Of a stretch of 13,508 nt of DNA, positions 3,001 to 6,000 are shown piece after piece. This stretch comes from a virus (Duplodnaviria > Heunggongvirae > Uroviricota > Caudoviricetes): the IMG/VR virus record IMGVR_UViG_2537562192_000015; one strand, written 5' to 3'. The first letter of the stretch is position 1. The number at the start of each line of letters is the position of its first letter. Made by a program: the position numbers.

Positions 3001-6000
3001 AAGCCGTGACGGGCTTAAAGCACTGGGCGCAGAACGTCACCATTACATCAACCTTGCCCGCACTGAAAATCGCTTCGCTGGGCTGGCTGTAGGCGAGCGT
3101 CAGAGCGCGGGAGAGCAACAGTTAGGCTTACTGATAGTCATGCAGAAAATCGAGCAGGCAGCATTTAACGAGGCGATACAGAACGGCATGACACCGACCG
3201 AAGCGGTGCGGGAAGTTGCTCGCCGCATGGAGACGTTCGCCAGCCTGATGACGTCAGCGCCGTCTCTGGGGGGGAATCATGCGTAATTATGATTTCGCCG
3301 CAATTATTCCGGTATCACCTGGCATTATTGGCAGATATGAAACGGGCGTTGTCAGCGCACGCGCACTGCATAAAGCGCTCGGTGTAGGCCGTGATTTCAC
3401 CACCTGGATTAAAGGGCGTATTGAGGAATACGGATTTAAAAAAGGTGTGGATTTTGAGGCTGTAGAAAATTTGTACTTTGATTCCCCGAAACGGGGGAGC
3501 CAAAGTGTAAATATTGAACAGTTTGATTCTGGCTGGCACGTCGCCTGGGAGAACGTGAACATGCCTGACATCCGCAACGCTGCCGCCCTGTACATCGATA
3601 CTGCGGATAAGTTCGCACAGGTGAGCATCAACCATGCTGATTACATGCGCCATATCGTGAGCCATTTCGCCGCTGAGCGCATGAAACACGTTAAGCATTA
3701 TCAGAAGGAGGCTTTATCAAATTATCGCGCTGGTGGCCCTGTACGGCGTGAATATCCGCATGATGCAGGAATGGCAGGCAAAACAAAGGCGACCACGAAA
3801 GGGTCGCCAGTGGAGATAAAGGAAATCAAGCGCATCACCAACTATGCCATGAGTGTAGCTGGTGGACAAGGCTATCAGCCAGGCGGTCGGTTTTTAGTGG
3901 CTTTTAACCGCCGTGGGTATTTCTCGACAAAATCTTCAAGGGCAAATCGTTTTTGTGGGTGTTTTTTCACTCCGGGAAGAGGCGTTAACTCTTCGGGTTC
4001 TGATATCTCTTTAGCGCGTTTCAGTTCCAGTTGGCGCTCAAGTATGCGGTGCAAAAGCTGTCTTCGTTGTTCGGCAAAAATATCTGTAATGGATTGGTAC
4101 TTTTTGTTCATGCTGCTGCCCTGTAAAGCAATGCGCCGTAGTACCTCACACCACGGCGCTGATAGTGATTATTCTGATTCTTTGGCCTTGCGGCGCTGGC
4201 GGCGTTTGATCTCGCCTCGCATGGCTGTAACGATAAATTGCGCAGTGCTCTCGCCTGTTTCTTTTACTTGCTCCATAGCCTCAACAACTTCATGCGGGGC
4301 GCGAGCCTGTAATTTCTGTGATTTGTTATTGATATGGTCTCTTTCCATTTCTGCTTCCCTTTGTGATTACTGGAATCCAGTATACACGAAAAAGACCAAA
4401 ACAAAACGCTTGAAGTGGATTCCACTTAGTGATTATACTGGAATCCAGCTGAGTGTTTATCACTCAATGCAAACGAGGCTGAAAAGGATTGCCGTCCTTT
4501 CGCAGCCTCTGACCACCAACGATAGCAAGAGTATCGAGGCAGCTATGAGAAATCATATCACACACCCGCAAGGGCGGGACTCGCACAACCTGAATAAATT
4601 CACCTGGCGCTTTATGCAGTGCCTGACAGGCAGCATTGCAATATTCACCGTTACCGCTGCCACTGAGCGCGAAGCACGCGCCCGGCTGCCGCACGCACAT
4701 CTGATTTTTGTCGCCCGTATCCGTCAGGAGGCATCACATGGATAAAAACATGTTGATCGCCTCTTCTTTCGGGCTGTATGATGCCGAAGTCGCCCACATG
4801 GCGACCGGGTTTAGCAGCCTGAATCAGATAGCGGACAGCCGCTTACATTCCGATATGCGGTTTTTTTGTGTCCGTAAGCCTACCCATACCCGCATTATGG
4901 CGGGGCGTAACGGGGGAGCCTTTGCGCTCGCTGGTTCCTATCTGGCCAGTCTGCTAACCCCGTTACGTCTCGCCACCATGTTTAGCAGCGTAGTAGCGAG
5001 ACTCCTTAATCAACAGATAGGAGCCTTTCACATGGCTGTATCCGCACGCACATCTGATTTTTGTCGCCCGTATCCGTCAGGAGGTGACTCATGCTTAAAA
5101 CCTTCCGCGTCTTTTCCCGTGCTGTTAACAAGCGCGGCTATACCGTTGGCATCACGCAGAACGTGAAGGCCGAAAACGTCCAGGCTGCAATCAGCACAGT
5201 AATTAACAAATCAGCTAAAGCCGGTTTATCCGGCGTAATTATCCACGCAGTGACATGTATTCAGGATGAGGAGTAATTCATGTGTGATTTTTCCGATATG
5301 ACTGTTGATGAAGCAGCAAAAAGCGCAATGCAGGCAGAACTTATTTGTTCTCTGATGATGGGTAACACAGGTGAAATGACTGAGGGTGAGATTGAGTCAT
5401 TGCTCGCCCTGATTAAGCAGCTTACAGGTAAGGCAGGTAGCTGGCTGATTGCTGCATCGGGTGATGATGCAATATGCGTCAATGACTGAATCCTTTGTTG
5501 TTCTGAATATCATGAAATTAAGGGGGTGCAGTAATGCAGCAAATAACACTGGCAGAAGCCTCACTGCAAGCGCAACAGGTCGAAGTAATTAGCCGCATGA
5601 TTGAACGCAACCACGAAGAAATAGACGACCATGACCTTTCTGTTATTGCAGGACTTATCAAACAACTTTCCAGCAATGTGGCGGTGTGGTTAATGACGGA
5701 GGAAGAAAAACGCGGCGAACAATAACGGCTAAAAATAAACGGGAAATAAATATTAAGACGACTCCTTCAGGAGATTAATTCAATAGCATCAAAAAATACT
5801 GGCTTAACTGCCAGTAGCAAAACTCACCCCGAATTTATGTGCGGGGATATTTACCGCAATGAATACGGTAGCCACATGACGATGATCAGCAGAGGTAAGA
5901 AATGAAAAGCGCACCGAACTTAAAAAAACAGCCTCGAGGGAAAAAACACGCCGATACGGAAGTGATTATTTTCGCTGGCAGTGATGCGTGGGCGCACGCG

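Follow-up and report, generated by a model that had tools for sequence, protein, structure and literature searches.

The DNA analysed here (the window) is a stretch of 13,508 nucleotides from an IMG/VR virus record assigned to the Caudoviricetes. An open reading frame with an ATG start occupies positions 3279 to 4745 of its plus strand and encodes 488 amino acids. Apart from the terminal codon at 4743 it contains no stop, versus 26 and 36 internal stops in the other two plus-strand frames, which confirms the uninterrupted AntA-domain frame reported in a preliminary description of this DNA. The features along the frame and around it are listed in Table 1, in which the term eta-like refers to the eta gene of phage P4, with which the frame is compared below.

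Table 1. Features at and around the long open frame of the window.
Feature	Position	Strand	Basis or remarks
Rha-family gene	2567..3286	+	Pfam Phage_pRha; PGAP annotation of the identical locus L001; sequence
Long frame	3279..4745	+	AntA remnant, then eta-like connector, then nested Icd/Kil-like gene
AntA domain, truncated	3351..3476	+	Pfam AntA (PF08346); PGAP; comparison with L024
Eta-like ORF, conserved 5' segment	3561..3874	+	Internal ATG, MPDIRNAAALY...; P0007 and P0088 begin here
Terminator-like hairpin with T-run	3788..3808	-	Downstream of the minus-strand operon
78-aa gene	3875..4111	-	Small-protein family with C-terminal FALEDF.xKY motif; WP_001037050.1; AT-skew flip
Hairpin, 12-bp stem	4133..4159	-	Between the two minus-strand genes
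YlcI/YnfO-family (RHH-like) gene, 59 aa	4169..4348	-	NCBIfam NF041551
Divergent promoter/operator region	4349..4544		Crossed by the open frame; promoter-like sites, palindromes, hairpin
Nested Icd/Kil-like gene, 66 aa	4545..4745	+	GAGG Shine-Dalgarno before ATG 4545; domain 4599-4727
Second eta-like frame, truncated	4738..5166	+	Carries the RNA immunity module
a1/b1 targets	4776-4825	+	In the 4738..5166 frame
isrK-like element	4789-4867	+	In the 4738..5166 frame
C4/CI-type RNA	4893-4980	+	In the 4738..5166 frame
Direct repeat of 4689-4747 (Icd-like 3' end)	5042..5100	+	59-bp recombination scar

The upstream end of the frame is tied to the Rha-family gene, the stop codon of which (3284-3286) overlaps the ATG of the long frame by 8 nucleotides (3279-3286, ATGCGTAA). 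Amino acids 25-66 match the Pfam AntA domain (E 3e-13), but only over model positions 1-39 of 68, in agreement with the truncation proposed earlier, and a complete AntA domain followed by a C-terminal part, as in an AntA/AntB antirepressor, is absent from the long frame. In comparison with the intact 266-aa AntA gene of locus L024, antA lacks about 512 nucleotides of its interior and 3' portion. The deletion maps to about 3474-3528, ahead of the point where the eta-like ORF begins, and the AntA remnant is joined in frame to the beginning of this ORF (MNMPDI..., about 3555-3561). In the identical locus L001, PGAP marks 3279-3536 as a pseudogene. Further along, amino acids 121-159 of the frame (3639-3755) resemble amino acids 101-139 of Rha with 38% identity (E 8e-6). 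This is the RA..PVRREY module that the preliminary description had seen in both proteins; it is indeed common to them, but it is not cut short here, as had been supposed. Locus L003 is a recombinant of Rha and the eta-like ORF, with its junction within or beside this module, and this region is a mosaic produced by recombination, having 3100-3953 in common with L002 and 3607-4747 with L003.

Two genes are embedded in the frame on the minus strand, where coding is marked by a flip of the AT skew. The 59-aa product scores 72.3 bits with the YlcI/YnfO model NF041551 (E 2.4e-20), versus a curated cut-off of 30. An RHH fold is only suggested, by a weak match to PSK_trans_fac (E 0.024) and an equally weak RHH_1 match of the analogous 58-aa protein of L025 (E 0.021). 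For the 78-aa gene, no homologues were found in the GTDB loci beyond E. coli variants. The hairpin between the two genes recurs as 'CKAMRRSTSHHGAD' in numerous other variants of the frame. The preliminary description was right in that the middle of the frame is unlike ordinary protein: amino acids 199-422 contain 5.4% Cys, 16% Ser and 9.4% Arg, versus 0% Cys in amino acids 1-198. A Cys/Ser-rich composition is what is expected from the reverse complement of Lys/Glu/Arg-rich genes, and the stretch that had been singled out as Cys/Ser/Arg-rich is where the 78-aa gene lies on the opposite strand.

The palindromes noticed earlier in the intergenic region were found as three copies, two of CTGGAATCCAG (4368-4380 and 4436-4448) and one of TGGATTCCA (4416-4424), to which the YlcI protein may bind. 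The same region contains a strong leader hairpin (4475-4509) and promoter-like sites on the minus strand (from 4459 to 4432) and on the plus strand (4410-4439, 9 of 12 positions matching). The plus-strand site, from which the short Kil-only form may be expressed, is a consensus match only, as are the Shine-Dalgarno sequence and ATG at 4545. The 3' segment of the frame is Icd-like, as had been recognized: amino acids 441-483 match NCBIfam phage_ICD_like (NF033153) with E 1.7e-12 and 47.2 bits, versus a curated cut-off of 25. Its stop codon overlaps the next ATG (4738, ATGGATAA) by 8 nucleotides (4738-4745), and AGGAGG precedes that ATG. In the second frame, the C4 RNA scores 72.9 bits and the a1/b1 match 29.7 bits, which is below the gathering score of 46.7, and a promoter-like site is found at 4753-4782. 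The Icd-like gene of the long ORF is located upstream of C4 and has just a partial b1-like word in its leader, while the Icd-like copy after C4 is mostly deleted.

The openness of the frame is beyond chance from the window alone, as had been anticipated. With the protein sequences fixed and E. coli codon usage, the plus frame is open with a probability, P(open), of 0.12 across the 78-aa gene and 0.10 across the YlcI gene; the two intergenic pieces have values of 0.53 and 0.02, and the product of these values is about 1e-4. Two independent complete genomes carry the 488-aa ORF unchanged, and a third, with 12 substitutions, still has it open. Homologues of 485/486 amino acids span 100% of it, which is the kind of finding that the preliminary description had named as grounds for rejecting its reading, and 'Icd-like' ORFs of 300-684 amino acids form more than 100 clusters. 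The stop-free frame of 488 codons is neither a product of chance nor an assembly error, and selection keeps stops out of it.

Openness is also conserved across loci. In a GTDB sample of 15 loci from 13 genera, picked by YlcI homology alone, the antisense frame with aligned wobble positions is open across the YlcI gene in all 15, extending for 115-568 codons versus 9-110 in the other frames. Among the non-redundant YlcI genes of IMG/VR it is open in 25/26 (median 333 codons), with L126 being the sole locus where it is closed, while the other antisense frames are open in 0/26. A further set of IMG/VR loci, selected by the Icd-like match alone, has the frame open for at least 100 codons upstream in 34 of 36 cases (median 135, maximum 586), versus medians of about 16 codons for the other two frames. 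The locus searches used single proteins. Searching the INPHARED phage collection by tblastn with the Icd-like 66-mer and YlcI gave zero matches and hence yielded no phage-side controls.

The absence of stops extends to the non-coding DNA that separates the YlcI start from the Icd-like domain, where 1 in-frame stop is found versus 56 and 60 in the other frames (12 loci, 723 codons). The ORFs of L024 (684 aa) and L025 (560 aa), in which four antisense genes are crossed, contain 0 internal stops versus 25-43 in the other frames. The start of the ORF overlaps the upstream stop by 1-8 nucleotides in 7/15 GTDB loci, and in three further ones it is placed 8 nucleotides downstream or overlaps by 35 nucleotides; at the other end, most loci have the ORF running past the start of the next gene. 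The frame of L016 ends ahead of the Icd-like gene and passes on to it via a 1-nucleotide overlap. L013 has its Icd-like domain in a different frame, and the long frame is nevertheless open as far as the next gene.

A codon ending in T (NNT) in front of a codon for His or Gln (CAN) gives rise to a TGA on the antisense strand. In the YlcI genes of the GTDB set, T-ending codons before CAN number 0 of 70, versus 15.6 expected (P 5e-9, a naive value, as are the P values in general, given that the sampled loci are related). When amino acids that have no T-ending codon are excluded, NNT is found in 0/57 cases before CAN, in 25% before C[CGT]N and in 36% elsewhere, and the IMG/VR replicate gives 1/130, 19% and 35%, respectively. 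The effect can be followed at single positions: one Pro codon is CCT only in the three genes with Leu next and CCG, CCA or CCC in the eleven with His next, and a Ser codon is TCT only when CGG follows. In resampling, the YlcI set gives a product of 10^-5.9; the products for the small genes range from 10^-3.6 to 10^-4.7, in a sample that is biased, as these loci were picked for long ORFs. The YlcI and 78-aa genes are both genuine, and constraint at their silent codon positions keeps stops off the opposite strand. The lambdoid ylcI/ynfO genes of K-12 are likewise stop-free in that antisense frame, and they are unfit as a control since they have 3-4 CAN-preceded sites, at most one of which is able to make a stop. 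In L013, BrnA is without risk sites and BrnT has a P(open) of 0.19, which makes this locus merely anecdotal. Given that the two frames share their wobble positions, codon positions cannot reveal which strand is under protein-level selection, and protein-level constraint on the plus frame is inseparable from that on the minus-strand genes.

These data bear on the possible origins of the frame. It is very unlikely that the ORF is a mere shadow of the minus-strand genes, with their composition avoiding antisense stops and the plus strand carrying only the debris of antA and Icd-like pseudogenes. Such a view agrees with the PGAP/RefSeq annotation, where the antA and Icd-like segments of the identical locus are given as pseudogenes, with a P(open) of 0.40 and 0.66 when each gene's own synonymous codons are permuted, and with the few or no risk sites in BrnA of L013 and in ylcI/ynfO of K-12. 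It is nonetheless largely refuted by the openness of this frame, and never of the other antisense frames, in two independently ascertained sets of loci, by NNT missing specifically before CAN while being present before other codons starting with C, by the directly visible codon covariation, by the scarcity of intergenic stops and by the resampling products. Still less credence can be given to two possibilities raised in the preliminary description, namely that the antirepressor lost its 3' end to the insertion of the RHH module, leaving a frame that is accidental, or that the true stop was lost to a frameshift in sequencing or assembly. The insertion does not fit the deletion and in-frame fusion in antA, which lie far upstream of the RHH gene, nor the presence of YlcI modules within such frames in 13 genera, even though AntA is truncated and the region is a recombination mosaic (segments shared with L002 and L003) with a 59-bp repeat scar; an ancestor with a stop near 3870 and without the YlcI module was not seen. 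The frameshift is excluded by the identity of the ORF in independent complete genomes and its openness in the third.

The closest of the earlier proposals was a functional fusion protein, in which a long linker of low complexity connects a Bro/AntA-type N-terminus with an Icd/Kil-like effector and openness is selected for the sake of the fusion. The conserved openness and the homologues that cover the whole ORF are what such a protein would produce. The reading is nonetheless unlikely, given that the part upstream of the Icd-like domain varies from about 118 to 586 codons and is made of unrelated, swappable pieces (antisense genes and promoters, with RNA genes in C4-type variants), that the AntA domain is truncated, and that the Cys/Ser-rich middle fits the reverse complement of the minus-strand genes. 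The frame is broken and re-coupled in L016 and the Icd-like domain is in a different frame in L013, arrangements which mean that physical fusion to this domain is unnecessary. The comparative data point to selection for an open, translatable frame rather than for the sequence of a linker.

The preferred reading, to which a probability of about 0.7 is given, is that the frame is the satellite counterpart of the nested eta/kil gene of phage P4, with its openness under selection. In P4, translation of eta prevents premature Rho-dependent termination, and the read-through transcript gets to the replication genes (PMC10111431, citing Forti et al. 1999). P4 eta (8812..8168 of L006) ends in Kil, with phage_ICD_like matching amino acids 161-208 of 214 (E 1.4e-20), and includes seqA/a1b1, an isrK-like element and the CI/C4 RNA. 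As in P4 eta, the small Kil/Icd-like gene of the window is the 3' end of a far longer in-frame ORF, this ORF traverses an internal regulatory region (in P4 the promoter and immunity region, in the window a promoter-like one), and it is linked to the upstream gene at its start and shares 8 nucleotides with the next gene at its end, a coupling that is alike in geometry only. An open upstream extension of this kind is general among Icd-like loci. The two differ in that P4 eta is some 200 codons long, with seqA and the CI RNA inside it and everything on the same strand, whereas the ORF of the window has 488 codons and crosses two opposite-strand protein-coding genes and a palindromic operator region. 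The upstream partner is alpA in P4 and Rha, via the AntA remnant, in the window. Pfam Phage_ASH is not matched by the 488-aa ORF, and the CI/C4 RNA is located outside of it (C4 and a1/b1 at 4776-4980, in the next ORF), with the YlcI/YnfO module in the equivalent place. For this reason, homology to P4 eta is confined to the Kil/Icd end and the architecture.

As in the P4 model, the long ORF begins at the Rha stop codon by way of the fused AntA remnant, traverses the internal regulatory region of the element and ends in an Icd/Kil-like gene that may also be translated alone from ATG 4545, its end overlapping the start of the next gene. The region crossed is the minus-strand module (YlcI/YnfO, the 78-aa protein and the operator-rich divergent promoters) and not a CI/C4 RNA gene. 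The target of selection would be the open frame, with ribosomes following RNA polymerase on transcripts from an upstream promoter. This translation of the plus frame, coupled to the flanking genes, would by analogy with P4 shield read-through transcripts from premature Rho-dependent termination. A rut-like signature (C-rich/G-poor) is not obvious from the GC skew of the plus strand at 3875-4350, which is T-rich and not clearly C-rich/G-poor.

The window also resembles the immI region of phage P1 (c4 antisense RNA, icd, ant) in having a C4-family RNA, a1/b1 targets, and Icd-like and AntA/Rha genes in one co-oriented block. The order differs, with Rha and the AntA remnant followed by the Icd-like gene and then C4, and the Icd-like copy that would be expected after C4 has mostly been deleted. 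In P1, icd is a short ORF to which the downstream ant is translationally coupled, and not the end of a 1.4-kb frame. Like antiparallel overlapping genes and shadow ORFs, the locus has one long frame on each strand, with the wobble positions in register; unlike them, it shows constraint on the plus frame solely as an absence of stops, and this reaches through non-coding DNA. The layout of the window (int, alpA, Rha/AntA, primase, SSB) matches the 'Bro zone' of Gram-negative PICIs and helper-embedded PICIs, where domain-swapping genes of the AntA, Rha and ASH types lie between alpA and primase, and where CI and seqA homologues are found within Bro genes (PMC10111431). YlcI, or antisense genes inside Bro-zone frames, are not mentioned in that paper.

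The eta/kil principle is already known; what looks new is the presence of antisense genes inside the frame that are recoded at silent sites. It is tentatively proposed, at somewhat less than even odds, that eta-like frames serve as 'translatable corridors' for opposite-strand cargo recoded at its silent sites, and that read-through which escapes Rho silences the regulator, giving a protein-based immunity switch. The cargo would comprise YlcI/YnfO regulators, small proteins with the FALEDF motif and, in one locus, a BrnT/BrnA pair. Ribosomes would escort late transcripts antisense through this cargo, the embedded regulator would be silenced by convergent transcription, and the switch would take the place of the CI/C4 RNA. 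The YlcI/YnfO proteins and the CTGGAATCCAG palindromes are candidates for such a switch, as an alternative to the CI/C4 RNA. If this is true, it would be a clear natural case of synonymous codons being dictated by the translation, and not the encoding, of the other strand. On the preferred reading, the principle of P4 eta, in which a frame matters through being translated, would hold for a large group of enterobacterial satellites whose frames cross genuine genes in antisense. The use of CCT only where CAN does not come next is a clean signature of silent-site selection for the opposite strand. An open frame of this type would also account for the recurrent trouble in annotation, where the same frame appears as an 'Icd-like protein' of 380-684 amino acids, as a 43-aa protein or as fragments of pseudogenes.

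It is clear that the long frame is open as a single unit, given that it contains only its terminal stop codon, whereas the other two plus frames contain 26 and 36 stops over the same interval. An AntA domain (Pfam, E 3e-13) is found at residues 25-66, matching only the first 39 of the 68 model positions, and a phage_ICD_like domain (NCBIfam) at residues 441-483. The plus-frame translation of 3873-4544 has 5.4% Cys and 16% Ser, and the plus-strand AT skew is strongly negative from ~3850 to 4375, as expected where the minus strand codes. The resemblance to Rha around RA..PVRREY is a 39-residue alignment with 38% identity (E 8e-6). 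The Rha stop and the long-ORF start meet in ATGCGTAA, the long-ORF stop and the next start in ATGGATAA, with AGGAGG just before, and adjoining or overlapping ORFs tile the plus strand from 2567 to 5725. Every feature of the frame and its surroundings that the preliminary description listed is present in the window.

Features of the long frame, its surroundings and related loci (window coordinates unless a locus is named)
Feature	Position	Strand	Remark
Long ORF	3279..4745	+	ATG start, 488 aa
Terminator-like hairpin after the 78-aa gene	3788-3808	-	lies where the plus ORF is still "protein-like"
78-aa ORF inside the long frame	3875..4111	-	no family
12-bp-stem hairpin between ylcI and the 78-aa gene	4133-4159	-	
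59-aa YlcI/YnfO-family ORF inside the long frame	4169..4348	-	E 2.4e-20
Palindrome CTGGAATCCAG	4368-4380 and 4436-4448		in the 196-nt stretch 4349-4544
Palindrome TGGATTCCA	4416-4424		in the stretch 4349-4544
Stable hairpin	4475-4509		z = -2.9
59-bp direct repeat	4689-4747 / 5042-5100		recombination junction mark
Second, truncated eta-like frame	4738-5166		contains C4/CI-type RNA, a1/b1, isrK-like element
a1/b1 targets	4776-4825		Rfam match below gathering score
C4/CI-type antisense RNA	4893-4980		downstream of long ORF; Rfam, 72.9 bits
F(A/V)L(E/D)(D/E/N)F..K family	3875-4111; L024 4324-5361; L025 4168-5049; L002 3776-3964	-	
PF10554 "Ash protein family"	L006 (P4) 8330-8704; L002 4179-4440		

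The openness exceeds what chance would give, as had been suspected. When both minus-strand proteins were held fixed and their codons redrawn from E. coli usage, the plus frame remained open with a probability of 0.12 for the 78-aa gene and 0.10 for YlcI; shuffling of the two intergenic pieces gave 0.53 and 0.02, and the product of the four is ~1e-4. Permuting each gene's own codons gave higher values (0.40 and 0.66), this being a blunt test if the constraint itself shaped codon choice.

A sequencing or assembly frameshift, one of the explanations offered earlier, is contradicted by complete E. coli genomes: ten contain 1.8 kb of the window at 98.5-99.9% identity, and the long ORF is identical in two and has 488 aa with 12 substitutions in a third. 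A 3'-truncated antirepressor displaced by insertion of the YlcI/YnfO module had also been proposed. The truncation stands, and the search for an intact antirepressor at a related locus succeeded: L024 has a 266-aa AntA gene that ends 14 nt past the start of the next ORF (MNMPDI...). The insertion does not stand as its cause, given that in the window ~512 nt are missing relative to L024 and the antA remnant is joined in frame to the MNMPDI... ORF near 3555-3561. RefSeq treats antA at this locus as a pseudogene and the Icd-like parts as pseudogene fragments, with YlcI/YnfO as a gene. Its calls for the long frame disagree, with pseudogene fragments in L001, L004 and L005, a 380-aa "Icd-like protein" in L002 (WP_167604881.1) and a 43-aa protein in L003 (WP_001380641.1).

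Since database proteins are open by construction, loci were sampled by other criteria. Picking IMG/VR loci by the Icd-like match only gave 36 with 1.5 kb or more of upstream sequence; in 34 of these the frame of the match is open for 100 codons or more ahead of it (median 135, maximum 586), and the median in the other two frames is ~16. GTDB species representatives picked by the YlcI protein only gave 15 loci from 13 genera (50-89% protein identity), in all of which the antisense frame in the window's phase is stop-free over the whole YlcI gene, for 115-568 codons against 9-110 in the other two antisense frames; an in-frame Icd-like domain closes it in 11. No C4 RNA was found within 3 kb of any of these 15. 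In a replicate from IMG/VR (80 loci; 26 YlcI genes remain when DNA identity is limited to below 95%), 25 of the genes are open throughout in this frame (median 333 codons) and none in the other frames; in L126, the one that departs from this, a 198-aa gene has been inserted immediately upstream.

The openness is enforced at silent sites of the crossed genes and in intergenic DNA. The wobble positions of both strands coincide in this phase. For TGA to appear in the antisense frame, a sense codon must end in T and the next must be CAN (His/Gln); TAA or TAG appears there when the third base is T or C and a Tyr codon (TAY) comes next. In 14 non-redundant YlcI genes, none of 70 codons before CAN ends in T, with 15.6 expected from the same amino acids elsewhere (P 5e-9, a naive value, as are all the silent-site values, since the samples include related sequences). 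Leaving out amino acids that have no T-ending codon, the count before CAN is 0/57, compared with 25% before C[CGT]N and 36% elsewhere; the IMG/VR replicate gave 1/130 versus 19% and 35%. In the alignment, codon choice directly covaries with the following residue: for a conserved Pro it is CCT in the three genes with Leu next and CCG, CCA or CCC in the eleven with His next, and a conserved Ser takes TCT only with Arg (CGG) next, and TCA or TCG ahead of Gln. At the risk sites, A, C and G interchange freely in the third position. From the YlcI start to the Icd-like domain, the non-coding DNA of 12 loci (723 codons) contains one in-frame stop, versus 56 and 60 in the other frames.

The frame is kept open across many lineages and architectures. 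In L002, with a different middle that includes a C4 RNA gene, no stop interrupts its 474 codons between the antA ATG and the Icd-like end, and in L003, which starts with a Rha N-terminus, it is open for 461. L024 has a 684-codon frame through four tandem minus-strand small genes and L025 a 560-codon frame through four called antisense genes, both with no internal stops where the other frames have 25-43. Small minus-strand proteins of 62-82 aa in the window (3875-4111), L024, L025 and L002 form a family with a common F(A/V)L(E/D)(D/E/N)F..K motif at the C-terminus. Their genes frequently lie in tandem, as the four of L024 do, their phase relative to the long plus frame is always the same, and no match to them was found in Pfam or NCBIfam.

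The long frame ends in a Kil/Icd homologue and is coupled at both ends through overlaps. In 7 of the 15 GTDB loci the first ATG overlaps the upstream stop by 1-8 nt, the upstream partner being of the Bro-N, AntA or a similar type; in three loci after AlpA the ATG is 8 nt downstream of the stop or overlaps by 35 nt. In most, the frame end overlaps the next start by 1-17 nt. The L016 frame ends short of the Icd-like gene and hands over to it through an overlap of 1 nt. The open frame of L013 (Superficieibacter; 2199-3902, on the minus strand of that locus) spans 568 codons; it crosses YlcI and, also antisense, BrnT/BrnA, a toxin-antitoxin pair (Pfam E 1e-17 and 5e-20), and runs on to the next gene, although the Icd-like domain is not in its frame. 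These two exceptions indicate that unbroken ribosome coverage is more strictly conserved than a physical link to the Icd-like domain.

A chance or shadow ORF is contradicted by the openness of the frame in every GTDB and all but one of the IMG/VR YlcI loci. A functional 488-aa fusion protein predicts openness equally well. Homologues of about that length, which the preliminary description had set as a ground for refuting its reading, do exist: "Icd-like" proteins from E. coli, 300-684 aa long and in over 100 clusters, share parts of the long ORF, and those of 485 and 486 aa among them cover it completely. However, the middle is modular, very variable and odd in composition, and the AntA domain is truncated. 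Given also the interrupted frame of L016 and the displaced domain of L013, the fusion protein fits poorly and is the less probable reading.

The long frame is probably an eta/kil-type read-through ORF, as in bacteriophage P4. The P4 eta ORF (L006 8812..8168) includes seqA/a1b1, an isrK-like element and the CI/C4 RNA. Like the long ORF, it ends in a Kil/Icd homologue (Kil, with 1.4e-20 to phage_ICD_like, the model that the long ORF also matches) and overlaps the start of the gene after it, epsilon, by 8 nt. Nonsense mutations in eta are reportedly polar and suppressible. [quoted passage not shown] 1999, J Bacteriol 181:5225 as the primary source of the eta genetics). By analogy with P4, ribosomes would translate the long frame on transcripts that start at an upstream promoter and would thereby guard them from Rho-dependent termination en route to the replication genes. 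The eta/kil principle and the position of CI/seqA inside Bro-zone genes are known already (PMC10111431), while protein-coding genes antisense inside eta-type frames, with synonymous recoding, are apparently new: PMC10111431 mentions neither YlcI nor antisense genes, the literature covered contains no description of such genes or of such recoding, and the one mention of YlcI/YnfO in it is an entry among the accessory genes of a satellite survey. The Pfam "Ash protein family" model (PF10554) falls on residues 37-161 of P4 eta, the part with seqA/a1b1, the isrK-like element and the CI/C4 RNA, and this family may largely reflect RNA-gene conservation read in the eta frame.

The three palindrome copies overlap promoter-like hexamers on both strands, at the -10 regions of face-to-face promoter-like sites, and are candidate operators for the adjacent YlcI/YnfO protein. 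This protein may bind them and control the divergent promoters, in which case its module would do with a protein what the CI/C4 immunity module does with RNA. The hairpin between ylcI and the 78-aa gene recurs in many variants and reads "CKAMRRSTSHHGAD" in the plus frame.

The window is a P4/PICI-type satellite that carries an integrase, with the gene order int, hypothetical, AlpA-like HTH, Rha, long ORF, three small ORFs, DUF927 primase and SSB; in related genomes it adjoins tRNA-Gly. The region is a recombination mosaic, and because the window is a recombinant it holds both the protein-type (YlcI) and the RNA-type (C4) immunity modules. An isrK-like element near the C4/CI-type RNA matches Rfam below the gathering score. 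The Icd-like copy expected after C4 is mostly deleted, its remainder being the downstream copy of the direct repeat. L002 is common to the window over 3100-3953, followed by the C4 module and the Icd-like gene; L003 is common over 3607-4747 and has neither AntA nor the C4 module. Compared with window 2567-4745, L003 2723-4108 is a deletion or recombinant: a Rha N-terminus leads into the long ORF near 3607, the joint being in or next to the common DY..AER..PVRREY module, and AntA is gone with the frame still open. The Rfam int-alpA RNA (RF02996) was found in four related satellites (L007, L014, L016 and L018) and not in the window at E <= 1. Downstream of the primase/SSB block, the plus-strand ORFs at 9965-10267, 11189-11491 and 11196-11660 have in common the motif GLWRRAA.RW..V/L ... 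RE.AARRRA.C and may form a small family of paralogues.
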